Positions 12,522 through 63,250 of a stretch of DNA of 64,000 nucleotides are shown piece after piece. Every line of letters begins with the position of its first letter. Within the stretch, counting starts at the first letter, position 1. A program made the position numbers and the translations under genes. The notes under the pieces were generated by a model that saw nothing but the letters and a program-made list of their open reading frames with translations, was not told the DNA's origin and ran no database searches. This DNA is from a virus: the IMG/VR virus record IMGVR_UViG_3300027956_000006, one strand, 5' to 3'.

Positions 12522-13522
12522 AAAGGAGAATAGAATGAGAATTGAATATGGGATAAATCCAAATTGTAGCGAAGCGGTATTTAGATTCTATACCTTAGAA
12601 CCTAAAAAAATACATACAATATTACAATCAATCGCTAATGAAATTTCCAATGAAACTGATTTTACACCACATAAGAAACAAAAAATACCTCTTTTAAAAA
12701 ACGCTGATGATTATGACACCAATTATCATAAGGCAACCAATCAAGAATACGATACTCATTATAAAATAATTAGTGTTTTAGCAGCAAAACGTAACAAACA
12801 AAACGCGACTAAAAAGGAGATTGCTGAAGCTGAAAAAGCACTAAAGATAGAGTATGAACGTTTTAGAAAATTACAATATCGTAATAGTGTATCATTAAAA
12901 GCATGCGCTGGTCTTGGTGATAATGACGCTATTATTACAGTTGAAAAAGAAAATGGATCTTTTCGTTTAAATATAGGTAACAATGATATACAAAATAATA
13001 AAACTAATTGGATAGAAAAAGTAAAAGCATTAGATATTAAGATTGAAGAAGCAGAAGTAGGTGAGAATAATTTAAAAGATTATGCACGTGATTGTACATG
13101 CGGTGTGGTATTTTTTGAATAATGCAAAAATTAATAATTGGTATTAAAATTGATGATAAGATAAACTATCTTAAAACAATAGAAATCCAAGAAAATATTG
13201 ACATAATAAATAGGTTAATTAAAGTTATAGATACTTTTATAAAATATAATCTAGAATAGGAGATAAAAAAATGGAAAAATTATCTAAAAAAGTCATTAAA
13301 GAGAAAATTGCCTTATTAGAAGAGGCTAGAGAGTTAATAGAAAAAGCGGTTGCTAATATTCGTGAAGCCGTACAAGATACTTCTGAAGATTCTAGAGCAG
13401 CTGCATATATTATACCAACATTGGAAATGTGTTGTTATGAAAGTACTAATTGGTTAGGTAAACAAGAATCGAATATCGAAGAATTAATAAACAGTTTAGA
13501 AGAAAGCGAGGATGAGGATTAA

Positions 13523-17735: not shown

Positions 17736-18248
17736 ATGGGAACTCGTGGTGCATGGGGATTCAGAAAAGATAATATTGATAAAATCGCTTATAACCATTA
17801 TGATAGCTATCCAAGTGGACTGGGTGAAACCATTAAACATTTTATTGTTAAGCATAGTATTGAGGAATTAGAAAAAACATTTTACCGAATTATCTTAATT
17901 GATGGTAACACACCACCCAATGAAGAACAAATTAAACAATGTTCAAAATTTTTAGATTTAGGTGTTAGCAACAAAACAAAACAAGATTGGTATTGTTTAT
18001 TACGTGAAGCACAGGGCAATCCCGAAGCTTATGTAAATGATTTAGTATATATGGTGGATAGTGCAGCATTTTTAAAAGATAGTTTATTTTGTGAATGGGC
18101 GTATATAATCAATCTCGATACAAAAAGATTAGAAATATATGAAGGGTGCCAAAAAAGAGCACAAAAAAATAGATACTATAATTGTAAGTTACAGTTTGAA
18201 GTTGATTTAGATAAAGTAAAGACTTTTAAAATAGGAGCTATAAAATGA
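17736..18248 (+). CDS. hypothetical protein immediately upstream of and overlapping rtcB
   Basis: Stop overlaps rtcB start (ATGA); likely co-transcribed with RtcB. Confidence 0.3.
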   Translation: MGTRGAWGFRKDNIDKIAYNHYDSYPSGLGETIKHFIVKHSIEELEKTFYRIILIDGNTPPNEEQIKQCSKFLDLGVSNKTKQDWYCLLREAQGNPEAYVNDLVYMVDSAAFLKDSLFCEWAYIINLDTKRLEIYEGCQKRAQKNRYYNCKLQFEVDLDKVKTFKIGAIK

Positions 18249-19477
18249 TTGAAGTTAAATATAATCCCTTGCATGATAAAATACCAGTAAAATTATGGAC
18301 ACAATATGATAAATTAGAATCTGGTGCTAAAGAGCAGATAGAACATCTCCAACAATTACCTTTCGCATTTCATCATATATCTGTTATGCCAGATGTACAT
18401 CAAGGTTATGGGATGTGTATTGGTGGGGTATTAGCTACTGAAAGAGTAGTTGTGCCAAATGCCGTTGGGGTTGATATTGGATGTGGGATGTGTGCAGTTA
18501 AGACTTCTCTTAAGGCGAATCAATTGGATAAAGAAACTCTTAAAAAGATAATGGATAAGATTAGAGAAGTGATACCATTAGGTATGAATCATCATAAAGA
18601 AAAACAAGATGAGAAGTTAATGCCTGAATCTAATATTCTTTCTGCAATGGGAGCAAATGAAAGTGTAGTTTTTTCTGAGTATAACTCTGCTTTAAAACAA
18701 TTAGGAACGTTAGGTTGCGGTAATCATTTCATTGAAATTCAAAAAGATACTAAAGACTCTGTTTGGATTATGATACATTCAGGAAGTAGAAATTTAGGGT
18801 ATAAAGTTGCTAAATATTACAATGATTTAGCTATTAAATTAAATAAACAATGGTTTAGTTCTGTTCCTAAAGAATGGGAATTAGCATTTCTTCCTATAGA
18901 TAGTCCCGAAGGTCAAAATTATTTAAGTGAAATGCAATATTGTGTTGACTTTGCTTTAGCCAATAGAAAATTAATAATGCAGAGAGTCATAGATATATTT
19001 GCTACGTTTTATGGAGACGGATTTCCTTTGAATTCAGACAACTTTGCTTTTAGAGTAGAACCTATAATTAACATCGCTCATAACTACGCTAGATTGGAAA
19101 ATCATTTCGGAAAAAATGTTATTGTTCATCGTAAAGGTGCTACTTCAGCAAGAAATGGGGAAATAGGTATTATTCCAGGAAGTCAAGGTACAAAATCATA
19201 TATTGTAAGCGGTTTAGGCAACTCTGAAAGTTTTATATCTTGTTCTCACGGAGCTGGAAGAACAATGAGTAGAACAAAGGCACAGACAGAATTAAATCTC
19301 GAAGAAGAAATTAAGTTAATGGACAATCAAGGTATTGTCCATGGAATACGAAACAGAGAAAACTTAGATGAAGCACCTGGGGCATATAAAAATATTACTG
19401 AAGTAATGCATAACCAAGCGGATTTAGTTGAGATATTAATTGAACTTACGCCATTATTGGTTGTTAAAGGAGATTAA
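18245..19477 (+). CDS. rtcB: RNA-splicing ligase RtcB (3'-phosphate/5'-hydroxyl RNA ligase)
   Basis: Strong family signatures: SVMPDVHQGYG, VGVDIGCGM, LGCGNHFIEIQ, WIMIHSGSRNLG, NIAHNY, IIPGSQGTKSYIV, SCSHGAGRTMSRTKA; 410 aa. Confidence 0.95.
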   Translation: MIEVKYNPLHDKIPVKLWTQYDKLESGAKEQIEHLQQLPFAFHHISVMPDVHQGYGMCIGGVLATERVVVPNAVGVDIGCGMCAVKTSLKANQLDKETLKKIMDKIREVIPLGMNHHKEKQDEKLMPESNILSAMGANESVVFSEYNSALKQLGTLGCGNHFIEIQKDTKDSVWIMIHSGSRNLGYKVAKYYNDLAIKLNKQWFSSVPKEWELAFLPIDSPEGQNYLSEMQYCVDFALANRKLIMQRVIDIFATFYGDGFPLNSDNFAFRVEPIINIAHNYARLENHFGKNVIVHRKGATSARNGEIGIIPGSQGTKSYIVSGLGNSESFISCSHGAGRTMSRTKAQTELNLEEEIKLMDNQGIVHGIRNRENLDEAPGAYKNITEVMHNQADLVEILIELTPLLVVKGD

Positions 19478-20658: not shown

Positions 20659-22872
20659 ATGGGCAAAACACAAGAAGATTTAGAAAATAGCCGTAAAAAA
20701 CGTGAGTTTGTTATAGAACAATTCGGAGAAGTACCAACATCAATCTGGCCAGTTGATTATAGTTGGGGTAAAAGTACTCTCGAATTAGATGAGAGAAAAC
20801 AACAAAAAATCGCTGAAGAAAAACATAAAAAAATGAAGTACAACCTTCAGACATTCGAAACCCAAAATGGTGAAGTAGTCGAATTTAACCAAATACAAGA
20901 CGCTTTCTCAATGAGTTCGCAAAATGTTAGAGGTAAAGGAGCTGGTCTTTCAACATTTCCTCCAGACCTTTGTCGCAAAATCACCGTATTTTATAGCAAT
21001 GAGGGTGATACAATACTTGATCCTTGCTGTGGGCATGCAAGCAGATTGGAAACAGTACACAAACTGAATCGCCATTATATCGGCTATGATGTATGCCATG
21101 CGTTCTGTGTATTTAATGAGAAAGTCAAAGAAAAATTGCTTTCAGATCAACTCTTCCCTTCTCAATATACGATAACATTACGTGAACAAAGTTCGGAGAA
21201 AATGGTAGAAAAAGATGCTTCAATCGATTTAGTTTTCACGAGCCCACCCTACCATGACATCGAATTCTACGACGATAATCCAGCTCAACTTGGTTATAAG
21301 AAAACATACGAAGAATTTCTCGCTGGTATTACTCGTGTTTTATCAGAATGTTATCGTGTTTTAAAACCAAACAAATTCTGTGTTTTTAATGTGAACGATT
21401 TTAGAAAAGATAATAAATATTATATATATCATGCAGACATTGCGAGAATCATGGAGCAAGTAGGGTTTAAATTGTGGGACATTGTTATTATACCCTGGAA
21501 GAGTTGCATCGGTCAATGTTTAACATCCAATACAGAAATTTTAACAAATAAAGGGTATAAACAAATACAAGATATCAAAGTAAATGATTTAGTTATCTCC
21601 CATTTAGGTAAACAACGTAAAGTACAGCATATCTTTGCACGTCTAATCAAAGAAAAAGTTTATGAATTATCAATAGCTGGGACTAACGATAAAATCATAC
21701 TCACAAAAGAGCATCCGATTTTAAGTGTAAAAAAATCAGCAATCATGTGCGTGCGTAACAAACATCTCCCTTGTAATGGTCATTTCAACAAATCACCCTG
21801 TGTTGCGATAAAAGGAGTCTATAAAACAGATTGTAATAAAAATAATGATAAATTGATAAAAGACGCCACTAAATGGAATAATGTGTCTTCTTTACTGGTT
21901 GGAGATTATGTTGCAATACAAACAAATTTAGATGTTAAAGACATTGAATCTTTGGATATTTGTGATTTTTTAGAAAAGGAACGATTCTATATTTACAATA
22001 ACAAATATATCCTACCAAAATTATATAAACCTTCTTCTGTCAAGATTAATAGAAATATTGATTTGGATTATGATTTGATGAAGTTGTTTGGGTATTTCTT
22101 GTCTGAAGGACATATTTATGTCTATAAAAAGACTGGATATGCAGAAAGCATAACTTTTACATTTAATAAAAAAGAAAAAAATTACATAAAAGATGTTATT
22201 ACGATTATGCACAATAAATTCAATCTGAAAGGAAATATTTATGAACCTAAACAATATAAAACTGCGTCAATTACATTTTATTCTCGTACAGTGAGCGAAT
22301 TCTTTTTGCGATTATTTGGAAATGGTTTTAATAAAAAAGTAATTCCTGATGCATTTCTTTCTTTGCCTACACAGAAACAGTTGGGTTTATTGTGTGGTTT
22401 ATTCCGAGGAGATGGATGTTTGTTGTATAATCAGAAGAAAGAAATTTCTTCAATGAATTTAGGAATGTCTAATAAAAATATTATCAAAAATACACGTGAA
22501 ATATTACTGAGGTTAGGGTATGTGTTTGCATATGGTTATTATAAACCTAAAATCAGCAAAAATCTAACATATCGTATTAGTATTAGTGCAAAAAAAGCTC
22601 CAGCATTGATTGCCCATATCTTTAATAAAAAAATTATTGGCGGCGGATTATATACGTTATCTACCCCAAAAAGCAACACCTATAATTTTAGACGTATTGT
22701 TAATATACGCCAACTGCCATTTGAAGGAAATGTCTATAATCTTGAAGTTGCAATAGATAACTCCTATATTGCTGAAGGTATTATTTGCCATAATTGTTTT
22801 GCTGGTCAGGTTTGGGATCGTAAAATTACCGCTAAATCCCACGAATACTTAGTAGTTGGGAAAAAAATATAG
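20659..22872 (+). CDS. DNA (amino) methyltransferase interrupted by a large LAGLIDADG intein
   Basis: Extein carries ILDPCCGHASRL (motif I-like) and VFTSPPY (motif IV); insertion from Cys287 (CLTSNTEIL) to ...IICHN/C with LFGYFLSEGHI and LFRGDGC LAGLIDADG blocks. Confidence 0.8.
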   Translation: MGKTQEDLENSRKKREFVIEQFGEVPTSIWPVDYSWGKSTLELDERKQQKIAEEKHKKMKYNLQTFETQNGEVVEFNQIQDAFSMSSQNVRGKGAGLSTFPPDLCRKITVFYSNEGDTILDPCCGHASRLETVHKLNRHYIGYDVCHAFCVFNEKVKEKLLSDQLFPSQYTITLREQSSEKMVEKDASIDLVFTSPPYHDIEFYDDNPAQLGYKKTYEEFLAGITRVLSECYRVLKPNKFCVFNVNDFRKDNKYYIYHADIARIMEQVGFKLWDIVIIPWKSCIGQCLTSNTEILTNKGYKQIQDIKVNDLVISHLGKQRKVQHIFARLIKEKVYELSIAGTNDKIILTKEHPILSVKKSAIMCVRNKHLPCNGHFNKSPCVAIKGVYKTDCNKNNDKLIKDATKWNNVSSLLVGDYVAIQTNLDVKDIESLDICDFLEKERFYIYNNKYILPKLYKPSSVKINRNIDLDYDLMKLFGYFLSEGHIYVYKKTGYAESITFTFNKKEKNYIKDVITIMHNKFNLKGNIYEPKQYKTASITFYSRTVSEFFLRLFGNGFNKKVIPDAFLSLPTQKQLGLLCGLFRGDGCLLYNQKKEISSMNLGMSNKNIIKNTREILLRLGYVFAYGYYKPKISKNLTYRISISAKKAPALIAHIFNKKIIGGGLYTLSTPKSNTYNFRRIVNIRQLPFEGNVYNLEVAIDNSYIAEGIICHNCFAGQVWDRKITAKSHEYLVVGKKI
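21517..22794 (+). mobile_element. intein (LAGLIDADG homing-endonuclease type) within the methyltransferase gene
   Basis: Begins with Cys (CLTSNTEILT, block A), ends HN followed by Cys+1; two LAGLIDADG-like blocks. Confidence 0.7.
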
Positions 22873-35040: not shown

Positions 35041-38000
35041 ATGGATTCTTATGAAAATCAATTTATTTATGTTGATGGTTATTATGAAAAATCTTCCGGT
35101 CATGCTACTCCCTGGAAAAGAATTAAAATCTCTGAAATACCTAATTTAAAGAAAAAAGCAGAAAATTTCAACGTTTTTGTTACAGCACAACAATTCTGTT
35201 CACCACAAAGAGTAGAAGAGGAGTTACTTTGGGGGCCTTTATACTTTGATTTAGATGCTTCCGAACAATATCCTATTGAAATAGCAAAAGAAGATGCGCG
35301 TAAACTGGTTGATTTTTTTGTGAAAGGCCATGGTATCAACCACGAGTATGTACGTAGTTATTATTCCATTATTGGTGACACACCTGTATTAATTAAGCAA
35401 AATAATGGTAAGGTCAGATTAATTAGCATACAACAAGTTGTTGAAGAATTTAAAAGAACAAAAAATCTAAAAGTTTATTCTTTAGATCCTACTACAAAAA
35501 AATCTAAATTTTGTAATATATATGATACATTATCACACAAAGAACATGTTATTAATGTTTATCACGAATGTTCAAATTTACCACTTATTATTACTAATGA
35601 TCATTCTGTATATGTTGTTAATGAGAATTTAGAATTAATAGTTAAAAAGGGTAACGAATTACAACGTAATGATTATTTAGTAACATTTAATTCATTAGAT
35701 TATGATTTTGGCAATAATAATGCAAAACGCCCTAATTATACTATATCTTATAAGAATAAATCAATAAAAATTAATAATGATATTGCTAAATTTATAGGAT
35801 TTTTTGTTAGTGAAGGTCATATCTCTACTGATCAACAGAAATATTGTCGATTTTGTGGTAATGTTGGATTGTCTCGTATTGGAATAGGATTTTCATTTCA
35901 TTGTAAAGAAAAAGAATATATCGAATTTATTATAAAAACAGCAAAACAATATTTTAATTTACAAGCACATTCCCATACCTCTAATAATTGTACACAGATA
36001 TTATTTCATTCGCGTGAATTAGCTATTTTAATGGAGCAACTATGTGGAAAAGGTGCAATTAATAAACATTTTCCTGATGAATTTTTAAGTTATAGAAAAA
36101 ATATTCAAATGGCGCTTTTAGAAGGATATTTAGATGGAGATGGACATTATGATAATTATAGAAATAGATATGGTACTACGATATCAAAAATATTAGCAGA
36201 ACAATTAGTTTGGTTAGGGAAATCATTGGGTTTTTCTTCGACAATCCGTGTTGGTAATTATGACATGACACACAATAGACATTCTCATCTTTCTTATCGT
36301 ATTAGTTTTAAAAAACAAAAATTTACAAAATTTGCACCAGCACCAAGAGATTTATTATTACCAGTTAAACCACTAGGCAATGTTTATAGACAATGTTGTC
36401 CAATATTTCAACAAAAAAATAAACGTGTATTTCGCACATTTTTTCTTCAAAAAAATAGATTAAATAAGCAACAAATATATAAAATTATTCGACTTTTAGA
36501 TCGTTATAAAACAAAAGAATTTGATATATTAAGTAAATCTATTATTACGTCCTATAAACAATTCTTTCAAAATAATCTTTCTGTATTACCAATTACAAAA
36601 ATAATTAAAACAAAAAAGAAAGAAATGGTATATGATTTATCGGTTGATCAAAATGAGAATTTTTTTGGTGGTTCATACCCAATTTTATTACACAATTCTG
36701 GGTCCAAAGGATTCCATGTCTTTGTGCATCCAAATGTCTTAAATGTGCATCCAGACGCAAAATTACATCATATTTTCAAGTCTATAGCACTGTATTTAGA
36801 GCAGCTTTTAGAACTTAAGACGCTAGATACAGCTTCTATTTATTCAAAACGTCGTATGATGCGGCTACCAGACTCTTTACATCAAAAATCTAAGCTTTTT
36901 AAGATAGAATTGCAACATAATGAATTAAATAAGACTATTGAAGAAATACGTGATCTTGCTAAACAGCCAAGAGGTAGCTTATGGCCTGAGGAAGAATTTG
37001 GTAATATCTTACCTGTAGATGATGCGGCCATATTTTATAAGCATTTTGTTGACCTCTATAAGCAGCAAGAAATGATTGAGAAACTTAAGCCTCAAGTTTT
37101 GATACGTAAAACAGGTGAAACTGCTACTTGTGTTAAAGATTTACTTGAAAAGCATATACGTAAAAATGGAACCCGTAATTTAGCTACTATGAATTTAGCT
37201 ACATATTTCAAGGATCAAGGGTTTAATGAAAAAGAGACAATTGATGTTTTACTTCCTTGGGCGTTACGCACACCAAAAGAATTCACTTCTACAAAAGATG
37301 CATCTAAATTGAAAGCATCTACAATTTCATGTATAAAGTCTGTTTTTGGAAGTGATTATCATTTTGTTTGCAGTGTTATGCGTTCTCTTGGAGAAATTGC
37401 ATGTGATTTTGAACATTGTGAAATTGCCAATGAAGAAGATCAAAAACCAGAGAAAGAGATTATATTACATTTATCTGAAGCCTCTAATGCATGTTATATA
37501 AGAAAGAAAATAAAATCCAAAGTGCTAGTGGCAGGTAAAGATACTTCTCCATATTTAGTACCAAGACGTATTAAAATGGTCTGTGTTCCAGATTTAAAGC
37601 AGGAAGATAGTAAATGTAAAGAATGTAAGATGGCAAAACACGGTGGTAATTTTGAATTTGAACTAAATGAACATGATGCTTTATTATTAGAGTGTATCCA
37701 ATGTTCTACAACACAACAAATTAATGTTTTAAGACGTTTAACTGAAACAACTAAATGCAATAAACCAAAGCTTTCGATCCTTGATACAGGCAATGTTGAG
37801 GAATTAGAGATTACTCCAGAAATAGATAAGCAGGTTAATATGGCTGCGGAAGGTAGTGAAGAATATGTTACGCGTAAAGCATATTATATTGGACATAACA
37901 TGCCTTTAAATCAAGAAGTTGAAATATCATGTTATACATATGCTGACCCTAAAACGCAACATGCGGTTCATTTATTTAGTGATTTTTCTTCTGCGGAAAC

Positions 38001-39444
38001 ATCTTTGAATAGTTTTAAAATGGATCCACATAAAGTAAAGGAATTGTCTATTTTCAAACCAAAAAACAATCAAACCATTGATCAGAAAATTCTAGAGATT
38101 CATAAAGATCTTGAGTTAAATGTACATCATATTTGGCAACGTGCACCATTGTTTATTGCTTTTGATCTTGTGTATCACTCAGTTTTAAACTTTTATTTTC
38201 AAGGAGATATTTTACGTAAAGGGTGGTCAGAGTTACTTGTAATTGGTGATTCTGGACAAGCAAAAACGGCTGCGGCACAAAAAATATCCCAGCATTATGG
38301 ATTTGGATATCGTATTTCTGGTGAGGGTGCGCGCAGAACAGGTTTGGCGTATACTTGGCATCAAACTGCTAATCGTTGGTCTGTTTCTTTCGGTGTGATA
38401 CCAAGAAATGATAAGCGTATTGTTTTTATAGATGAGGCCGGTGGTATTGATGATGAAGAATTATCTAAATTGACAGATATGCGTTCTGAAGGTATAGCTG
38501 ATGCAAGAGGTGGCCCGATACCAGCACGTACACATGCTCGTACACGTTTAATTTGGATGACTAATACAAAAACAGGGGCGCCGTTAAATGAATACCCTTA
38601 CCCAGTTACAGCTATACAACAAGTTTTTAGACGTACAGAAGATATAAGAAGGTTCGATTTAGCAATAGCCGTACGTTCTGGTGATGTATCTGATGCTATG
38701 ATACACCAATTAATTTCACAACGTGATAAAGTGGAGCACATATACACATCTTATTTATGCAGAAATCTGATTTTATGGGCATGGACGCGTAAAGTTGATC
38801 AAATTATTATTAAACCAGATGCGGAGCAAGCTATCCTTGAAACTGCAATGCATATGTCTCAGAAATATTCTTCTTTAATACCTCTTGTTGAGCCATCAGA
38901 TCAGCGTAATAAGATAGCACGTTTAAGTGTGGCGATAGCGGCAAGGCTTTTTTCGACTGACGAACAAGGCGAACATATTATTGTTTTATCTGAACATGTA
39001 CATTTTGTACGTGATTTTTTACAAGAACAGTATGATGGTCGTGCATTAGATTATTATAATTATAGTCAATTAAATAAAAGGGAGTTTATAGAGTCTGAAT
39101 TTGAAACGATTAAGAATGAATTTATGCACTTACCAGAGTATAAGTTATTAGCAAGTGCTTTAGTAAAAATGCCTTTTTTCAGAAAAACCATCTTGGAAGA
39201 ATTAGTAGGATATGATAAAGATGATATGCGGAGAACGATTAAGATTTTACATGTGCATAATCTTATGAAAGCTACTTCACATGGATTTAAACTAACTGCA
39301 GCAGGTATTAATTTTTTAAAACGTTTATTAACAACACAAGAACTAGTTAATGCTGGGACTGTGGTAACTATTGAAAATGTACCAATCATAAAAGATACCC
39401 AAGAATATATGAATACGGATGATATTTTTGCTGAAGGTAACTAA
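35041..39444 (+). CDS. bifunctional DNA primase (AEP/prim-pol type) - P-loop helicase, interrupted by an intein
   Basis: N-terminal LYFDLDA (acidic motif I) then intein; C-extein resumes SGSKGFHVFVH (AEP motif II); downstream LLVIGDSGQAKTAAAQ Walker A and VFIDEAGGIDDEE Walker B. Confidence 0.7.
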   Translation: MDSYENQFIYVDGYYEKSSGHATPWKRIKISEIPNLKKKAENFNVFVTAQQFCSPQRVEEELLWGPLYFDLDASEQYPIEIAKEDARKLVDFFVKGHGINHEYVRSYYSIIGDTPVLIKQNNGKVRLISIQQVVEEFKRTKNLKVYSLDPTTKKSKFCNIYDTLSHKEHVINVYHECSNLPLIITNDHSVYVVNENLELIVKKGNELQRNDYLVTFNSLDYDFGNNNAKRPNYTISYKNKSIKINNDIAKFIGFFVSEGHISTDQQKYCRFCGNVGLSRIGIGFSFHCKEKEYIEFIIKTAKQYFNLQAHSHTSNNCTQILFHSRELAILMEQLCGKGAINKHFPDEFLSYRKNIQMALLEGYLDGDGHYDNYRNRYGTTISKILAEQLVWLGKSLGFSSTIRVGNYDMTHNRHSHLSYRISFKKQKFTKFAPAPRDLLLPVKPLGNVYRQCCPIFQQKNKRVFRTFFLQKNRLNKQQIYKIIRLLDRYKTKEFDILSKSIITSYKQFFQNNLSVLPITKIIKTKKKEMVYDLSVDQNENFFGGSYPILLHNSGSKGFHVFVHPNVLNVHPDAKLHHIFKSIALYLEQLLELKTLDTASIYSKRRMMRLPDSLHQKSKLFKIELQHNELNKTIEEIRDLAKQPRGSLWPEEEFGNILPVDDAAIFYKHFVDLYKQQEMIEKLKPQVLIRKTGETATCVKDLLEKHIRKNGTRNLATMNLATYFKDQGFNEKETIDVLLPWALRTPKEFTSTKDASKLKASTISCIKSVFGSDYHFVCSVMRSLGEIACDFEHCEIANEEDQKPEKEIILHLSEASNACYIRKKIKSKVLVAGKDTSPYLVPRRIKMVCVPDLKQEDSKCKECKMAKHGGNFEFELNEHDALLLECIQCSTTQQINVLRRLTETTKCNKPKLSILDTGNVEELEITPEIDKQVNMAAEGSEEYVTRKAYYIGHNMPLNQEVEISCYTYADPKTQHAVHLFSDFSSAETSLNSFKMDPHKVKELSIFKPKNNQTIDQKILEIHKDLELNVHHIWQRAPLFIAFDLVYHSVLNFYFQGDILRKGWSELLVIGDSGQAKTAAAQKISQHYGFGYRISGEGARRTGLAYTWHQTANRWSVSFGVIPRNDKRIVFIDEAGGIDDEELSKLTDMRSEGIADARGGPIPARTHARTRLIWMTNTKTGAPLNEYPYPVTAIQQVFRRTEDIRRFDLAIAVRSGDVSDAMIHQLISQRDKVEHIYTSYLCRNLILWAWTRKVDQIIIKPDAEQAILETAMHMSQKYSSLIPLVEPSDQRNKIARLSVAIAARLFSTDEQGEHIIVLSEHVHFVRDFLQEQYDGRALDYYNYSQLNKREFIESEFETIKNEFMHLPEYKLLASALVKMPFFRKTILEELVGYDKDDMRRTIKILHVHNLMKATSHGFKLTAAGINFLKRLLTTQELVNAGTVVTIENVPIIKDTQEYMNTDDIFAEGN
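35365..36696 (+). mobile_element. intein (Ser1, LAGLIDADG type) inserted at the primase active-site motif
   Basis: Starts SIIGDTPVLI (block A), contains FIGFFVSEGHI and LLEGYLDGDGH LAGLIDADG blocks, ends ...ILLHN followed by Ser+1. Confidence 0.65.
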
Positions 39445-50915: not shown

Positions 50916-52442
50916 ATGGAGATGATAATGAAAAAAAATATTTCTACAAAACGAAAACCTCGTACAATTTTATCGAAAAAGGTCCCTTCATCTACTTCCA
51001 TAGAATATAAAACTGAATCTCTTATTGCATTAATTAATTGTTGTAGTACAAATATTAGTAAACAAACTTTTTATAATAAAGAAGATACACAGCGTTTAAC
51101 ATTATTAAATATTCATAGTGCCGCATTTGAAACGAGTAGGATGTTTTATGCTTTAATGTTGCTCCCTGATTTTGTAACTGATGTAAATAAAAAGATTATA
51201 GTAGCTAATTTGCTAGAAGGAATCAATGTTTCTGTTGGACAAAAACATTGGGAAGATGCATTAATTTTGCAAAGTTTTTCCAATATGCAACCTAACCGTA
51301 TTTTCGATATTTTGAATTATATAGTAGACCTTAAATTAAATAATGCACGCACGAGAAATTTGATATATAAATTTTTAGATAATAATAGAAATACGTTATC
51401 TTTATGGGCTTTAAAATATAAAAAATCTTTTAAAAGAGTTATACGTCATGCACATATTAATCCGCGCTTACATGATGCCATTAATTTTTTAATGAAACAT
51501 AAGTATACATCTGATGATATTTTATTACATAATTATAAATTAGCCCAGAAAGGTGACGTAGAAGCGATTTATAAATTACCTTTAACGGTAGCACGCGGTT
51601 TTGCCGCTAAATATGAAATAGAAGAAGCTGCTTTTTTAAAGAAATTTAATGAATGTGGCAAAATAACACAAAAAGAACAACGTCAACAAGCAAGAGAATT
51701 ACACGAAAAAGGGGTATCAGTAAAAGTTGACCTTAAAAAACTTGATTTGTTTGATCTTTTTGTATATCTAGGGATGTTAAATGAAAATAATGCTTTACCT
51801 ATTACTGTAAAAGATGATATTAATAATGCGGCAAGAATTGCTGCTAAAAATGTACCTTATAGGTTTGATGATGCAGCTGTGGTATTAGATACATCTCTTT
51901 CTATGTCTGGTGCAAAAGAAACAAAAAATCATCCTCTCTATCGTTGTTTAGCTATTGCAGCAGTGATTAAAGAATTAAGTGATACCTTTACCGAATATCG
52001 TATGCACAATGTTAATTCTTTAATACCTAAATTAAGTTCGCAAAGTAATTATAGCACTCCTTTATTAAAAGCTTTAAAGAAACATCACCATTACATTTTT
52101 ATTCTTGGTGATGGATATGAAAATGCTCCTTATGAAGGTGCTTCTAATTTAATTCTAACATTATATAAACAATTTATTGATAAAGATAACAAAGCTATTA
52201 TTACACACTTTAATCCTGTTTTTGCTGCTGAATCAAAAGATGTGCGTAATCTTTTTATTAATAAAAAATATAATGCTATAGGTATACGCAATGACAAAAG
52301 TTTATCTTCAGCATTATTTTTGTCTATGAGTAAACAAAATCCATTACAGGCGCTTACCGCTTATTTCACAGTATTATTACGTTTGCAAAATAAAATAGCA
52401 CAAGCATTACAACCAAAAGAAGCACAGCTTAAATTGGAGTAA
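50916..52442 (+). CDS. rsr: Ro60-like protein (TROVE domain + von Willebrand factor A domain), Rsr ortholog candidate
   Basis: Central WALKYKKSFKRVIRHAHINP resembles TROVE [21 protein letters not shown]; C-terminal vWA MIDAS AAVVLDTSLSMSG as in Ro60 (LAVDVSASM); 508 aa like bacterial Rsr. Confidence 0.55.
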   Translation: MEMIMKKNISTKRKPRTILSKKVPSSTSIEYKTESLIALINCCSTNISKQTFYNKEDTQRLTLLNIHSAAFETSRMFYALMLLPDFVTDVNKKIIVANLLEGINVSVGQKHWEDALILQSFSNMQPNRIFDILNYIVDLKLNNARTRNLIYKFLDNNRNTLSLWALKYKKSFKRVIRHAHINPRLHDAINFLMKHKYTSDDILLHNYKLAQKGDVEAIYKLPLTVARGFAAKYEIEEAAFLKKFNECGKITQKEQRQQARELHEKGVSVKVDLKKLDLFDLFVYLGMLNENNALPITVKDDINNAARIAAKNVPYRFDDAAVVLDTSLSMSGAKETKNHPLYRCLAIAAVIKELSDTFTEYRMHNVNSLIPKLSSQSNYSTPLLKALKKHHHYIFILGDGYENAPYEGASNLILTLYKQFIDKDNKAIITHFNPVFAAESKDVRNLFINKKYNAIGIRNDKSLSSALFLSMSKQNPLQALTAYFTVLLRLQNKIAQALQPKEAQLKLE

Positions 52443-55579: not shown

Positions 55580-55607
55580 TTGACAAAATCATAATTTGTG
55601 TTATAAT
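55580..55607 (+). promoter_or_regulatory. sigma70-type promoter (TTGACA-16-TATAAT) preceding the ncRNA/tRNA island
   Basis: cTTGACAaaatcataatttgtgtTATAATata. Confidence 0.6.
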
Positions 55608-55917
55608 ATAAATATAGTAGAGATTTGATCTTTGATTTAAGAGGACTTAAGTTAAGAGTTCAGAATGTTTATATTAATTATAATGGAAACAGGTTAAATA
55701 ATTACTCCTTGTTCAAGGGGTGTTATTTATTAAACTCTTACTACTTCTCCTCTTTCTTATCGTATAAATTAATAACGGACTATGATAAAGAATACAGAAT
55801 GGTAAAAAGTCTGACTTTGAAATCAGAAAATGTACGTTCGAATCGTACCTTCCCCACCAATAAAAAAATATTGGGGAAGAAAAAAACAATTCTTTTCGCT
55901 TTTCCGTTATTTTAATT

Positions 55918-55989
55918 CGCAGGGTAGTGTAGGGGGAACACACTTGTCTCATACGCAAGAGAACAGTGGTTCAAATCCACTTCCTGCAA
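55918..55989 (+). tRNA. tRNA-Met (anticodon CAU); C1xA72 mismatch suggests initiator-like or Ile2/lysidine type
   Basis: Hand-folded cloverleaf: D stem GTGT/ACAC, anticodon stem CTTGT/GCAAG loop CTCATAC, T arm AGTGG-TTCAAAT-CCACT. Confidence 0.65.
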
Positions 55990-56049
55990 CAAATTTAATA
56001 GTATAAACAAACATGACTATAAAAGTTAGATTCGAACATAAGATGTATA

Positions 56050-56207
56050 AAAACCAAAGCCGTAAGCTTTGGCCCGCAGCCATTTTATGTTCGGGTAGCT
56101 TTAGGCCAGCGTTTGTTTCTACAGATAATATAACCGATTCACAGTAGAACGTAGCTGACAGATCTAGGACCTAAAGCTACCGACTACTAAAAAGAGTCGG
56201 TTTTTTT
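56050..56207 (+). ncRNA. structured ncRNA of unknown class ending in an intrinsic terminator (candidate Y-like / sRNA)
   Basis: Hairpins CCAAAGC-CGTAA-GCTTTGG and CCCG...CGGG; 14-bp helix GGTAGCTTTAGGCC / GGACCTAAAGCTACC with a bulged A enclosing 59 nt; ends with CCGACT-ACTAAAAAG-AGTCGG + T8. Confidence 0.45.
56179..56207 (+). terminator. Rho-independent terminator
   Basis: CCGACT(ACTAAAAAG)AGTCGG followed by TTTTTTT. Confidence 0.7.
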
Positions 56208-56213
56208 ATTTAT

Positions 56214-56286
56214 GCCGCTGTGGTCTACGGGTTAGGACGCGAGAATTTCACTCTCGCAAAGCGAGTTCGATCTCTCGCCAGCGGTG
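56214..56286 (+). tRNA. tRNA-Glu (UUC)
   Basis: Acceptor GCCGCTG/CAGCGGT, D stem GTCT/GGAC, anticodon stem GCGAGA/TCTCGC loop ATTTCAC, T arm GCGAG-TTCGATC(T)-CTCGC. Confidence 0.65.
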
Positions 56287-56294
56287 CTAGAATT

Positions 56295-56370
56295 GCCTCG
56301 TTAGCATAGTTTGGCTCAATGCGTTGGCTTGTCACGCCAAAGATCGGGGATTCAAATTCCCCACGGGGCG
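56295..56370 (+). tRNA. tRNA-Asp (GUC)
   Basis: Acceptor GCCTCGT/ACGGGGC, D stem GCAT/ATGC, anticodon stem TTGGC/GCCAA loop TTGTCAC, T arm GGGGA-TTCAAAT-TCCCC. Confidence 0.85.
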
Positions 56371-56379
56371 CTAAGAATT

Positions 56380-56636
56380 TAGTTAATGAACTAGCTACGG
56401 GTAAGCCTTAATGACTTATCTGAGGAAAGTCCAGGCTCTACATAGCAGCGTATCAAAGCTAACAACTTTGAGCAATCATAAAATTGACGATAAGAGGACA
56501 GAGACGAGAAAAATGAGACGACCAATCTCTACGCAGAGCAAGATCAAACAGAACCTGACCTGCTCGGTCGATAGGTTCGGGTAACGATCGCATAGACGGA
56601 TGGCTAGATAAACAAAACCTGGCTTATCATTAACTA
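56380..56636 (+). ncRNA. rnpB: RNase P RNA (compact, ~255 nt)
   Basis: P4 strands GAGGAAAGTCCAGGCTC (hallmark GGAAAGUCCGGGCUC) and ACAAAACCTGGCTTATC (ACAGAACCCGGCUUAUC) with compensatory CGG>CAG / CCG>CTG changes; P1 GTTAATGA / TCATTAAC closes the molecule; CATAGCAGCG after P4 matches CAUAGGGCA. Confidence 0.65.
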
Positions 56637-56646
56637 AATACTTTTT

Positions 56647-56732
56647 GGAGGGTATGTGCATGGTTAGATTGGCACGCCAGTTTGCTAAACTGGAAATCGA
56701 AAGAAACGCAGGAGCGTCACCTGCACCCTCCG
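56647..56732 (+). tRNA. tRNA-Ser (GCU), class II with long variable arm; atypical T loop
   Basis: Acceptor GGAGGGT/ACCCTCC perfect, D stem GTGC/GCAC, anticodon stem CCAGT/ACTGG loop TTGCTAA, 14-nt variable arm, T arm GCAGG-AGCGTCA-CCTGC. Confidence 0.55.
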
Positions 56733-56750
56733 CAAAAAAATTAAGAAAAA

Positions 56751-57434
56751 ATGAAAAAATATGTTTTATATAAAACAATCAATAAAATAAATAAGAAATT
56801 TTATATTGGTGCCCATATAACAGAGAATATTAATGATAATTACATAGGATCGGGATTATATTTATGTCAAGATATTAAAAAATACGGTAAAAATAATTTC
56901 AAAAAGATAGTTTTGAATTGTTTTAATTCGAAAGATGAATTATTATGTGCTGAAAAAAAATTATTGGACGCTAGGTACATAAAAAAGAATAAGCATCGAT
57001 TATATAATAGAAATGGTGGCGGGGCAGGATCGTGGATATATAATAATTATTTTTCTCCAAATAGAAAAGAACGATATAAAAGAATTTATATAAAATTCAA
57101 AAAATTGTTGCGCAATAGAGAATGGAGAAAGGAATTTTGTACAAAACTATCAATAGGACAGAAACAAGCTAGAGCTAAAGGCTTGTGTAAAGGATTTTTG
57201 AATAAAAAGCATACTAATAAATTTAAAAGGTTTATCGGTAAAATAAATGCAATTCAAAATAAAGGCAGAAATAATCCTCAATATAACAAAAAATGGATAT
57301 CGAATCTAAGATTTAAGAAATCTGTTCTTATTAAAAAAAACCTGATACAAGATTATTTAGCTCAAGGTTGGATAATTGGTAGAAGATTTAATGCTGGGTG
57401 TTTTGGGAAATTGGAAGAGTTGACGGAAGTATAG
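56751..57434 (+). CDS. GIY-YIG homing endonuclease
   Basis: N-terminal YVLYKTINKINKKFYIGA (GIY...YIG) ; basic C-terminal DNA-binding region; located between tRNA/ncRNA genes. Confidence 0.7.
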   Translation: MKKYVLYKTINKINKKFYIGAHITENINDNYIGSGLYLCQDIKKYGKNNFKKIVLNCFNSKDELLCAEKKLLDARYIKKNKHRLYNRNGGGAGSWIYNNYFSPNRKERYKRIYIKFKKLLRNREWRKEFCTKLSIGQKQARAKGLCKGFLNKKHTNKFKRFIGKINAIQNKGRNNPQYNKKWISNLRFKKSVLIKKNLIQDYLAQGWIIGRRFNAGCFGKLEELTEV

Positions 57435-57599: not shown

Positions 57600-57628
57600 C
57601 TGACAAATTAATTAATTATGCTATAATA
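57600..57628 (+). promoter_or_regulatory. sigma70-type promoter (CTGACA-17-TATAAT) driving downstream tRNA cluster
   Basis: aCTGACAaattaattaattatgcTATAATatat. Confidence 0.55.
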
Positions 57629-58576: not shown

Positions 58577-59905
58577 ATGAAAAATAAAATATTTGAGTTG
58601 TTTAAAGATTTTGAGATATTTCTTGTTGGCGGTTCAGTAAGAGATAAACTCTTGAATATAGAAACTAACGATTTAGATTTCGCTACTAGCGCAACCCCAG
58701 ATCAATCTAAAGCAATACTCGAAGCTGCTGGGTATCATCCGCATACTGTTGGATGGGCATTTGGCACAGTTGGTATTGTAAATGATCAATATGAGGTACA
58801 TATTACGACATATCGTAAGGCTGAAGATTATCAGCGCGATAATCGAAACCCGACAGTTGAATGGGGAAAAACTATTCAAGAAGATCTTATAAGACGTGAT
58901 TTTACCATTAATGCACTAGCACAAAATAGCACCGGCGAGATCATAGATTTATTTAATGGAGTACAACATCTTAAAGATAAGTTACTTGTTACACCGATCG
59001 ATGCGAATATAGCGTTTAATGATGATCCTTTAAGGATGTTACGAGCTGTAAGATTTAAGGCAAGACTTGGTTTTGAATATAGCACAAATGTACAAGAAGC
59101 TTTATATAGACAAGCACATCGTTTATTAATTCTTCCAAAAGAAAGGATCCAAGAAGAATTAAATAAGATTTTAATGACAGATAATGCGGCAGATGCATTA
59201 CATGATTTATATCAATTTAGATTACTAGATTATATAATTCCTGAATTAAAGATGTTAAGTAAGATCGAGCAAGACAGTATTTACCATTCAAAAAATGCAT
59301 TATTACATACCATAGAGGTATTGCGTAATACTTCAAAAGATATAATCTTAAGATATGCCGCAATCTTTCACGACTTGGGTAAAATGGTAACCCGGTCTGT
59401 AGAAAATGGTAATGTCCATTTTTATCATCACGAGAATATTTCGGCGCTTATGACATATCCAATTCTACAAAGATTAGGTTTACCAAAACGCTGGTGTAAA
59501 GATATTACATATCTAGTGAGAAATCATATGCGTGCTAATACCTATGAAAAAGACTGGTCAGATAGTGCAGTAAGACGTTTTATACGTGATACTGGTGAAT
59601 ATTGCGATAGACTTTTAGTACTTAGTAGAGCTGATATCACTAGTCATAACCCAATTACTGTGCAGAAGCATCTCGATTCTTTAAATGATTTTGAAAGACG
59701 TATTAATGAATTAAGAAATTTTAAAGAATTAAAATGCCCAATAAGTGGTTTAGTTATTATGGAATTCTTTGATTTACCAGCCTGCAAGAAAGTTGGTGAA
59801 ATAAAAGAGTTGATTCTGAATGCTATCATTAATGGTGAATTAAAAATTGAAGACAGTGAAGAAGTAATATTAGAATATGCGAAACGCAAGATGGAGATAA
59901 AATAA
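58577..59905 (+). CDS. cca: tRNA nucleotidyltransferase (CCA-adding enzyme), class II with HD domain
   Basis: FLVGGSVRDKLLN...NDLDFAT head-domain motif, RDFTINAL, ERI..EL, and HD motif AAIFHDLGK. Confidence 0.85.
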   Translation: MKNKIFELFKDFEIFLVGGSVRDKLLNIETNDLDFATSATPDQSKAILEAAGYHPHTVGWAFGTVGIVNDQYEVHITTYRKAEDYQRDNRNPTVEWGKTIQEDLIRRDFTINALAQNSTGEIIDLFNGVQHLKDKLLVTPIDANIAFNDDPLRMLRAVRFKARLGFEYSTNVQEALYRQAHRLLILPKERIQEELNKILMTDNAADALHDLYQFRLLDYIIPELKMLSKIEQDSIYHSKNALLHTIEVLRNTSKDIILRYAAIFHDLGKMVTRSVENGNVHFYHHENISALMTYPILQRLGLPKRWCKDITYLVRNHMRANTYEKDWSDSAVRRFIRDTGEYCDRLLVLSRADITSHNPITVQKHLDSLNDFERRINELRNFKELKCPISGLVIMEFFDLPACKKVGEIKELILNAIINGELKIEDSEEVILEYAKRKMEIK

Positions 59906-60366: not shown

Positions 60367-60882
60367 TTGATTAAGTTGAGAGTTTTAGTTTTAAATAGTT
60401 CGTATGAATTTCTTGGTTTTTGTGATTGGCAATCTGCCATTTGTGCTAAAGTATCCGGTAAGGTTTATGTTGAGGAAGAATATGAGCAGGAAGTAAGATC
60501 ACCTTCAACAACTATGCGTATTCCTGCCGTTATTAGATTACGTCATTATGTAAAAGTTACATATGAAAAAGTGATGTATGTTTCATATACTAAACGTAAT
60601 GTGCATCTAAGAGATAACTATACTTGTCAATATTGTCATACAAAACATGATGCTAGAAAATTAGGTATTGATCATGTATTACCTGAATCACGAGGGGGTT
60701 TAACAACTTGGGAAAATACCGTATCTTGTTGTCATGGATGTAATTTAGTGAAAGATAATAGAACACCTGAAGAAGCAAAAATGAAACTTATGCGTATTCC
60801 AACTAAACCTAGAGGGTTCAGAGAAATCATTAGGATTAAAATTGGTGAGTTACATGATCTTTGGGAAAAGTATTTATTTTAG
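60367..60882 (+). CDS. HNH homing endonuclease
   Basis: CQYCHTKHDARKLGIDHVLPESRGGLTTWENTVSCCHGCNLVKDN (HNH with Zn-binding Cys pairs); sits between tRNA genes. Confidence 0.75.
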   Translation: MIKLRVLVLNSSYEFLGFCDWQSAICAKVSGKVYVEEEYEQEVRSPSTTMRIPAVIRLRHYVKVTYEKVMYVSYTKRNVHLRDNYTCQYCHTKHDARKLGIDHVLPESRGGLTTWENTVSCCHGCNLVKDNRTPEEAKMKLMRIPTKPRGFREIIRIKIGELHDLWEKYLF

Positions 60883-62620: not shown

Positions 62621-62692
62621 GCCGGGTTAGCTGAGATAGATTAGCGCTGCGCTGAAGACGCGGAGAGGTCAGATCGATACTGACATCCGGCA
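62621..62692 (+). tRNA. tRNA-Phe (GAA)
   Basis: Acceptor GCCGGGT/ATCCGGC, D stem GCTG/TAGC, anticodon stem CTGCG/CGCGG loop CTGAAGA, T arm GTCAG-ATCGATA-CTGAC. Confidence 0.8.
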
Positions 62693-62702
62693 CAAAAAAA
62701 TA

Positions 62703-62730
62703 TTGACATTTGATAAGAATGTGATATAAT
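62703..62730 (+). promoter_or_regulatory. sigma70-type promoter (TTGACA-16-TATAAT)
   Basis: aTTGACAtttgataagaatgtgaTATAATata. Confidence 0.55.
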
Positions 62731-62850: not shown

Positions 62851-63242
62851 GGGGACGATCAGGTTTCGATTTAAATAAATAAGCATGGATCGCACATCGC
62901 AGACGCAATGTTGGCTGCGTTAACAAACATTGCAAATCTAAACGCAGACGAAAATACCCGTTTGTTAGCTGAAGCAAATGCTATTGTAGCACATGTATTT
63001 GCCGATGCACCAGTCGTAGCTACAATATAGTTACGCACCTACTTATTTTGTGTAAGTAATAAGTAAGGTACGATATTACACTAGTTTTAATATTGTCTTG
63101 ATATTAAAATGAAACTAAAAGACTATGTGTGTATGAACATGTCTGTTTGTATGTACACAATGAAGATAAAACAATAGACTATATGTGTAGCATATTTATG
63201 TTTAATTATTTAAAGACCGCGGTTCAATTCCGCGCGTCTCCA
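62851..63242 (+). ncRNA. ssrA: tmRNA (SsrA) with unusually long tag reading frame
   Basis: 5' GGGGACGATCAGGTTTCGA (cf. GGGGCUGAUUCUGGAUUCGA), 3' T arm CGCGG-TTCAATT-CCGCG + CGTCTCC-A pairing with 5' GGGGACG; internal frame GCA GAC GAA AAT ACC ... ATA TAG (ADENTRLLAEANAIVAHVFADAPVVATI*) resembling ANDENYALAA start. Confidence 0.65.
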
Positions 63243-63250
63243 CAATATAT

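Follow-up and report, generated by a model that had tools for sequence, protein, structure and literature searches.

The 64,000-nucleotide stretch of viral DNA analysed here (the window; IMG/VR record IMGVR_UViG_3300027956_000006) carries, between the genes for tRNA-Met and tRNA-Glu at the head of a tRNA array, an element that can be read as a ribosome-dependent transcription attenuator, composed of a leader open reading frame (ORF) and a bistable RNA and situated ahead of the block that opens a phage tRNA operon. We give this identification, which comes from comparative sequence analysis, about an even chance of being correct. In its best reading the attenuator would gate the genes for tRNA-Glu, tRNA-Asp, the RNase P RNA, and tRNA-Ser. 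The anatomy of an attenuator is recognized in the combination of a promoter, an ORF tolerant of sequence change, a terminator in which this ORF ends, a hairpin in the ORF that excludes the terminator, and downstream genes devoid of a promoter of their own. The first-pass annotation, made from the window sequence alone, had described positions 56050-56207 as an unclassified structured RNA with two small hairpins, a 14-bp helix, and an intrinsic terminator, reminiscent of Y RNAs. That observation is real but mis-assembled, and is confirmed in part, while its interpretation is partly supported: the structured region exists, but the element starts ca. 37 nucleotides earlier, at the ATG at 56013, and contains an overlooked ORF.

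Homologues of the element were reached via homologues of the CCA-adding enzyme encoded downstream of it and the contigs carrying them, which led to syntenic tRNA arrays, and then by a profile search. The latter gave nine distinct full copies, including that of the window (Table 1), and one partial copy (L281), all from uncultured phages. In all ten copies tRNA-Glu(TTC) starts 6-17 nucleotides after the end of the element, and a tRNA-Met gene lies upstream of seven of the nine full ones. L271 and L190 have no upstream tRNA; the former has a promoter-like TTGACG-16-TGnTATACT sequence 60 nucleotides before the leader ATG and the latter a TTGACA hexamer, spotted by eye. Four relatives with the CCA gene outside the tRNA array (L187, L188, L269, and L282) are devoid of the element, more distant phage arrays did not yield it, with a U-run before tRNA-Glu absent from 80 such loci, and there is no second copy (paralogue) of it within the window. 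Scans for exact patterns taken from its arms and conserved blocks yielded chance matches and a single homologous contig: GGTAGCTTTAGGCC had 58 matches in viral contigs, all due to chance, TTTTATGTTCG..AAAGCTAC gave in viral and metagenome contigs chance matches in coding regions and the L059 contig only (among the matches listed for the metagenomes), ACCGAY..TCGGT.TTTTTGTTT returned from viral contigs only those already known, and ACCGAYTC..GARTCGGTTTTTT had 37 chance matches and no homologue in bacterial and archaeal genomes.

Conservation is higher in the element than in the adjoining tRNA-Met. This bears on the possibility, also raised in the first-pass annotation, that the element serves passively in the tRNA precursor, as a spacer or a signal for processing, such as an RNase E/III site or a device protecting the ends of tRNA-Met and tRNA-Glu. 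A location between two tRNAs and a high degree of structure would suit such a role, but the element persists in L271 and L190, where there is no tRNA upstream, its helices covary, and its ORF and U-run terminator are maintained (see below), leaving the spacer a very slim chance.

An ORF homologous to the leader ORF of the window is open in all nine full copies and has 44-49 codons. Its start lies in an aligned, invariant ATG column (GTG in L190) and its end a few codons past a conserved Thr-Asp-Ser/Asn; the partial copy in L281 retains the frame as well (...YNRTDSNI*). The probability that a shuffled sequence would remain open is 0.02-0.13 per sequence, and the other two forward frames contain 1-7 stops per sequence. 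Coding on the minus strand was rejected, as every reverse frame is interrupted by stops in at least seven of the nine sequences. In a nucleotide-level alignment built without reference to codons, the gaps within the ORF are all multiples of three (3, 6, or 9 nucleotides), and those after the stop are mostly of one nucleotide. Divergence at the three codon positions is 0.485, 0.415, and 0.525, respectively, the third being the highest. The open frame, the gaps in threes, and the third-position divergence argue for a translated frame, and we conclude that it has in all probability been kept by selection. The peptide itself is weakly constrained, with a ratio of non-synonymous to synonymous differences (pN/pS) of 0.3-1.1, and has no match in Pfam; the conclusion drawn from this is that its amino-acid sequence matters little, which would be the signature of a leader peptide. 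A Shine-Dalgarno-like GAGG or GGAG precedes the leader in L183 and L190. Read-through of the amber stop was rejected as a general feature, since L059 and L183 carry TAG-TAA tandem stops and an extra, untyped tRNA of the window (62621-62692) reads as tRNA-Phe (GAA), not as a suppressor.

The RNA folds better than shuffled sequences, which bears out its description as structured: the minimum free energy (MFE) of 56040-56210 is -51.4 kcal/mol (z -4.37) and that of the full unit, 56013-56207, is -62.9 kcal/mol (z -6.25). However, the opposite strand folds almost equally well (z -3.9), so folding energy alone cannot assign the strand. No tRNA is predicted in the stretch, as had been stated, and no Rfam family matches it even at E<=10, which is consistent with an unclassified RNA. 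Conservation of the structure was scored on a codon-guided alignment of the nine sequences, which was anchored on the right at the U-run and built without fitting to a structure. Both small hairpins noted at first can be read directly, one being a weak CCCG/CGGG and the other H1, in which AAAG/CTTT is replaced by AGGG/CCCT in L190 and L271. H1 is enclosed by H0, whose GAACA/TGTTC core is kept and which uses a highly conserved block, TTTTATGTTCG; only 60% of the cells of H0 are paired because the codons holding its 5' partner vary with the lineage, and H0 as one fixed helix was rejected owing to this variable register. An elongated 5' hairpin is found at z <= -2 in six of the nine homologues.

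The predicted terminator does comprise a hairpin and a run of seven T, but its conserved stem is a long-range helix, T, rather than a local hairpin. Helix T pairs the consensus ACCGAYTC with GARTCGGT and forms the base of the terminator hairpin; 91.7% of its cells are paired across the nine sequences, with three covarying pairs (double changes of C-G to U-A/A-U, A-U to C-G, and U-A to C-G). Above it lie helix T2, paired in 76% with two covarying pairs and present in the fold with T enforced, and helix B, paired in 82% with three covarying pairs (0/500 shuffles, slid controls <=48%). Taken jointly, T, T2, and B are paired in 84.8% of cells with eight double-changed pairs (0/500 shuffles, slid controls <=37%). 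The U-run is kept in all copies together with G/A-TTT(T/A)TAT. The conserved terminator is, as far as comparison of the sequences can define it, a long three-segment hairpin whose 5' strand starts in the ORF and contains the stop codon, and which abuts the U-run. The 14-bp helix of GGTAGCTTTAGGCC and GGaCCTAAAGCTACC with its single bulged A, on the other hand, is a property of the window: it is perfect there, reduced to 8 bp in L182, and absent elsewhere, and across the nine sequences only 54% of its cells are paired, which does not differ from the controls (shuffles 116/500, slid controls 46-48%).

That helix is the outer extension, in the window, of a rod-like fold competing with the terminator. 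In every copy a segment X, covering codons ~28-40 of the ORF and located ca. 10-40 nucleotides upstream of the 5' arm of helix T, is complementary to the RNA following the stop codon (segment Y). The X:Y pairing of the window amounts to -30.3 kcal/mol versus -16.8 +/- 3.4 kcal/mol for shuffles (z -3.96), and the duplex outdoes shuffled partners throughout (z -1.7 to -4.6 over the nine copies; P<=0.012 in seven of them). The pairing sequences differ from copy to copy, being, e.g., GCTGATTGC/GCAATCAGC in L059, GCTAGTTGC/GCAACTAGC in L186, and GGTCGCTTCGGG/CCCGAAGCGACC in L190. X:Y loops out the 5' arm of T and occupies the 5' strand of T2 and B, and is therefore incompatible with the terminator hairpin; in the window it also takes up the 3' strand of T2 and B. 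When the 5' arm of T is blocked, every homologue refolds into the X:Y hairpin (A') and no stem abuts the U-run outside the window and L182; blocking costs 0.6-9 kcal/mol in those six homologues that fold into the terminator when unblocked. In folds of nascent lengths X:Y forms before the 3' strand of the terminator exists, and at full length the MFE structure switches to T-T2-B in seven of the nine copies. In the window the rod is the MFE structure (-62.9 versus -58.2 kcal/mol for the T-enforced fold). The window and L182 also have a local hairpin, CCGACT(A)CT/AGAGTCGG, which in the window overlaps the rod by two C residues.

These data can be set against the main rival of the attenuator, an ordinary small gene for a functional protein of 44-49 amino acids with its own stable but leaky terminator, in which case the tRNAs would come from partial read-through occurring constitutively, with no regulatory part for the alternative pairing. 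The ORF is kept in nine of nine copies with frame-preserving indels, certain residues recur (Q, (L/F)W, (L/F)C, (N/Y)xTD(S/N)), pN/pS is below 1 in most pairs, and terminators overlapping stop codons are common. However, the best-conserved residues are encoded by covarying helices (T-D-S by helix T, Q..W by H1, and L-C-S by H0) and may therefore reflect constraints on the RNA. In several pairs pN/pS reaches 0.6-1.1, the peptide resembles no Pfam family, and the element always stands between a promoter and the tRNA block. A plain terminator would also leave unexplained an X:Y helix that is stable in nine copies despite their differing sequences. We consider such a gene unlikely, although it has to be taken seriously.

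Less probable still is a small RNA of ca. 200 nucleotides, stable and either non-coding or with a dual function, which termination, or RNase P cutting at tRNA-Glu, would free from the tRNA precursor. It would act in trans, as might the stable RNAs of the T4 tRNA cluster or attenuator-derived small RNAs such as rnTrpL, and the ORF would be incidental or secondary. The strong conserved structure with its covariation, the terminator hairpin plus U-tail typical of small RNAs, and the location in a tRNA precursor, guaranteeing defined ends, would all fit such a molecule, and liberated attenuator RNAs can act in trans (PMC6614838). Yet nine diverged copies would not all have one frame open, with gaps in threes, if the ORF were incidental, no target or seed region can be named, and the competing fold finds no explanation.

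The way in which the attenuator would work can be outlined as follows. RNA polymerase starting from the promoter at 55580 would transcribe tRNA-Met, followed by the leader. With no translation of the leader, or only slow translation, X would pair with the post-stop RNA as soon as the latter emerges, the terminator hairpin would be blocked, and the polymerase would continue into tRNA-Glu, tRNA-Asp, the RNase P RNA, and tRNA-Ser. Under prompt translation, ribosomes would unwind X and leave at the UAG located within the 5' strand of the hairpin; with X unwound and the ribosome released, T-T2-B would fold against the U-run and transcription would stop. Translational capacity and the supply of phage tRNAs and RNase P RNA would in this way be linked by negative feedback. 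The promoter presumably drives the whole unit from tRNA-Met through the leader to tRNA-Glu and onward; a scan of the window revealed no further promoter-like site on the + strand between it and 56833, and none for tRNA-Glu is embedded between the U-run and that gene. We infer the switch mechanism from these features, and its direction is the least certain step. The opposite sign is possible, with a ribosome parked on the last codons masking the 5' strand of the terminator and favouring read-through; a terminator a few base pairs behind a translated gene is described as almost completely repressed by the ribosome (PMC4824070).

Several points weigh against attenuation. The leader of the window has no Shine-Dalgarno sequence, yet this is also true of ca. 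40% of the genes of the window, the AGGAG-type sequence being found in ca. 60%. There are no tandem identical codons in the leader, i.e. no regulatory codon run, nor is there an enrichment of Glu/Lys/Gln codons (P>=0.03-0.58 for the N-terminal half, >0.4 for the whole); sensing of specific downstream tRNAs through Glu/Lys/Gln/Asp/Ser/Cys codons was rejected for lack of enrichment. Helix T of L059 contains a C.A mismatch. In the window and L182 the local hairpin can form alongside the rod, so that a terminator of some strength is present in both conformers there. The terminator conformer is the thermodynamic minimum in most homologues, and antitermination would consequently need to be kinetic. 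Finally, the nine sequences belong to one phage clade, and the counts of covarying pairs given above do not represent independent events.

Table 1. Coordinates of the full copies of the element (each in its own contig) and of the features of the window
Feature	Position	Strand	Remarks
Element copy, window	56013-56213
Element copy, L182	2832-3034
Element copy, L059	7973-8186
Element copy, L186	7176-7393
Element copy, L280	2963-3175
Element copy, L183	8119-8334
Element copy, L191	5721-5938
Element copy, L271	5823-6047
Element copy, L190	5949-6156
Consensus sigma-70-type promoter	55580..55607	+	TTGACA-16-TGnTATAAT; 12/12 match, extended -10
tRNA-Met (CAT)	55918..55990	+	ARAGORN; directly upstream of leader
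Leader ORF	56013..56147	+	44 codons, ATG to TAG; peptide MTIKVRFEHKMYKNQSRKLWPAAILCSGSFRPAFVSTDNITDSQ; on the ORF list
5' hairpin domain	56030..56096	+	within ORF; H0 enclosing H1
H0	56030-45 with 56081-96		16 bp in MFE structure of window
H1	56054-60 with 56066-72		CCAAAGC/GCTTTGG; 87% paired in nine sequences, 2 covarying pairs
Segment X	56094..56125	+	5' strand of alternative rod; ORF codons ~28-38; includes GGTAGCTTTAGGCC and inner CAGC...TTCTAC
14-bp helix, 5' arm	56094-56107		GGTAGCTTTAGGCC
14-bp helix, 3' arm	56167..56181	+	GGaCCTAAAGCTACC; pairs either with X (rod) or with 56151-56156 (terminator hairpin)
Helix T, 5' arm	56133..56140	+	ACCGATTC; codons Thr-Asp-Ser, 2-4 codons before stop
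Helix T, 3' arm	56194-56201	+	GAGTCGGT; runs into U-run T7
Helix T2, 5' arm	56143..56147	+	AGTAG; contains TAG stop (56145-56147)
Helix T2, 3' arm	56184..56188	+	CTACT; part of conserved block ACTACTAAAA
Helix B, 5' arm	56151..56156	+	GTAGCT; just after stop codon
Helix B, 3' arm	56175-56180	+	AGCTAC; inside conserved AAAGCTAC and 3' arm of 14-bp helix
Local hairpin	5' arm 56180-56188, 3' arm in 56194-56201		CCGACT(A)CT/AGAGTCGG; window and L182 only
U-run T7 of intrinsic terminator	56201-56207	+
tRNA-Glu (TTC)	56214-56287	+	downstream of terminator, would need read-through
tRNA-Asp	56295-56371	+	downstream of terminator, would need read-through
RNase P RNA	56379-56641	+	downstream of terminator, would need read-through
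tRNA-Ser	56647-56733	+	downstream of terminator, would need read-through
CCA-adding enzyme gene	58577-59905		2.4 kb downstream of element
Transfer-messenger RNA (tmRNA)	62851-63245	+	within tRNA array

The likeness to Y RNAs suggested by the first-pass annotation rests on the bulged 14-bp helix and falls with the lack of its conservation. The Ro60-like protein invoked along with it is indeed encoded in the window, at 50916-52442 (+). It has 508 amino acids, and the ten best matches of its AlphaFold model (predicted local distance difference test, pLDDT, 80.4; predicted template modelling score, pTM, 0.74) found by Foldseek in the PDB are all Ro60/Rsr proteins, matched over the full length (E 3e-6 to 3e-3, template modelling score 0.46-0.57). 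Its identity to them is ca. 12%, and it contains a DTSLSMSG motif similar to the metal ion-dependent adhesion site (MIDAS); there is no sequence-level match in Pfam, PHROG, or PDB, and 18 homologues are found in metagenomes. Judging by the model, the product is a structural homologue of Ro60/Rsr. Together with RtcB, encoded at 18245-19477, it constitutes an rsr/rtcB-like RNA-repair pairing in a phage.

A partner of this protein, binding it by a long bulged terminal helix, could be looked for in the element, given a structured non-tRNA RNA, a genome with a Ro60-like protein and RtcB, and, in the window copy, a perfect helix with one bulged A, all of which are reminiscent of the Ro60/Rsr-bound Yrn1 and YrlA. 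YrlA is defined by a GNCGAAN0-1G motif and a tRNA-like domain, the latter occurring in at least one Y RNA per genome, and the Y RNAs of the same study lie less than 400 bp from the Ro60 gene (PMC4201824). However, GNCGAA is absent from 56013-56213, where the sole CGAA is preceded by TT in the sequence as read, and no tRNA-like match is found in the same interval. Nor does the element have a conserved end-to-end stem with the Ro60 site (GGUCCGA-like/GNCGAAN0-1G). The Ro60-like gene ends at 52442, 3.6 kb upstream of the element, and is absent from the 6-10 kb flanks of eight homologous loci carrying it. Covariance models of Y RNAs gave no match at E<=10 in 55600-56400 and none at the gathering threshold in the window or seven homologous loci. 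With every testable feature wanting and with most of its length taken up by a maintained ORF, the element is not supported as a Y RNA by its sequence, and we hold this identity to be hardly credible.

A better Y-RNA-like candidate for the Ro60-like protein adjoins the element. It is another structured RNA, 55771-55909 (+), located just upstream of tRNA-Met (z -4.1) and also present twice in L182 (2499-2651 and 13028-13118). It is closed by a long stem of two conserved strands, CGGACTAWGAWTAARGAATWCAGAAT ... ATTCTTTTCRCTYTTCCG, whose end covaries, being AATAACGGA/TCCGTTATT in the window and GCTGCGGA/TCCGCAGC in the second L182 copy. The apical part is variable and holds in the window a T-arm-like hairpin, GTACGTTCGAATCGTAC, with a weak Rfam tRNA match (21 bits). 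The second copy in L182 is directly preceded by a tRNA with a CTA anticodon (12946-13020; amber suppressor, labelled 'Pyl' by ARAGORN).

The window belongs to the large genome of an uncultured phage. Its tRNA array extends from ca. 55.9 kb onward and comprises 22 tRNA genes and tmRNA, with one additional tRNA detected by Rfam alone. The RNase P RNA is of the bacterial class A in a short form, scoring 112 bits versus a gathering score of 100, and the gene order behind the element, including this RNA, is repeated in L182, L183, L190, and L191. The 1:72 pair of tRNA-Met is mismatched, being C1xA72 in the window (flagged as non-standard by the Rfam alignment) and U x U in L059 (7868-7940). A mismatched 1:72 pair is a hallmark of the bacterial initiator tRNA; the tRNA-Met of the window is initiator-like in this respect, yet its anticodon stem is devoid of the three G-C pairs. 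Perfect or near-perfect sigma-70 promoters with an extended -10 are found at 55580-55607, 57600-57627, and 62703-62730 (+), and these three TTGACA-16-TGnTATAAT sequences stand at the heads of blocks of the array. This suggests that the blocks are strongly expressed units dependent on the host sigma-70, and that the host is probably not a member of Bacteroidota, despite a weak DNA match to a Lak phage. GenBank phages have no DNA match to the window except for homing-endonuclease and tRNA fragments, and their closest CCA-adding enzyme is at most 37% identical. Homing endonuclease genes are interspersed among the tRNAs (GIY-YIG, 56751-57434, and HNH, 60367-60882), and LAGLIDADG inteins are located within a DNA methylase and an MCM-like helicase (20659-22872 and 35041-39444, +).

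The closest known systems are the attenuators of amino-acid operons (trpL, hisL, pheL, thrL, leuL, and ilvL). In them, too, a short translated leader ORF separates the promoter from the regulated genes; they likewise have a terminator stem with a U-run directly before these genes and an exclusive upstream hairpin with its 5' strand in the ORF, and their peptides are weakly conserved. Unlike them, the element has no tandem regulatory codons, its ORF is longer and ends within the 5' strand of the terminator, and it is phage-encoded and precedes tRNAs and the RNase P RNA rather than biosynthetic enzymes. None of the Rfam leader families (Trp, His, Thr, Leu, Phe, and others) matches the region of the window or seven homologous loci. 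In pyrBI/pyrE attenuation of enterobacteria, coupled translation of the leader masks the terminator. The element shares with this system a leader of ca. 44 codons overlapping the 5' strand of the attenuator hairpin, the absence of an amino-acid codon run, and an outcome that would be set by the closeness of the ribosome and polymerase. However, the pyrBI/pyrE leader ORF spans the whole terminator and coupling is set by pausing sensitive to uridine triphosphate, while the ORF of the element stops in the 5' strand and there is an extra competing hairpin, X:Y. Stable RNA species 1 and 2 of phage T4 (rnaC, rnaD) sit in the T4 tRNA gene cluster and are, like the element, non-tRNA RNAs co-transcribed with tRNAs, but they have no sequence relationship to it (no GenBank phage matches) and, to our knowledge, no ORF or terminator-switch architecture. 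Literature searches turned up nothing of this kind described for the tRNA arrays of phages, and the chances seem evenly balanced that it represents a new family of leader-ORF attenuators controlling phage tRNA and RNase P RNA genes.

For genome scanning the lesson is that a perfect 14-bp helix in one genome can be a lineage-specific arm of a switch, whose conserved partner and hidden ORF become visible through comparison only. The unit of ca. 200 nucleotides with its nine natural variants offers a compact test system. In large phages, arrays of tRNAs occur along with tmRNA and even RNase P RNA, and, as far as we know, the regulation of these genes is essentially undescribed, while the logic of feedback from translation is known to us just for amino-acid biosynthesis and a few other operons. 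If the element is what it appears to be, no attenuator of tRNA and ribozyme genes would have been known before it, nor any leader-peptide attenuator in the tRNA array of a phage, and it would provide direct feedback from translation performance to the making of more tRNA. More tentatively, and with considerable doubt, the phage may gauge translational capacity by means of a mini-gene: under a shortage of host tRNAs or ribosomes, e.g. owing to host shut-off or to tRNA-cleaving defence nucleases, slow translation of the leader would favour the antiterminator and switch on the phage's own tRNA-Glu, tRNA-Asp, tRNA-Ser, and RNase P RNA.

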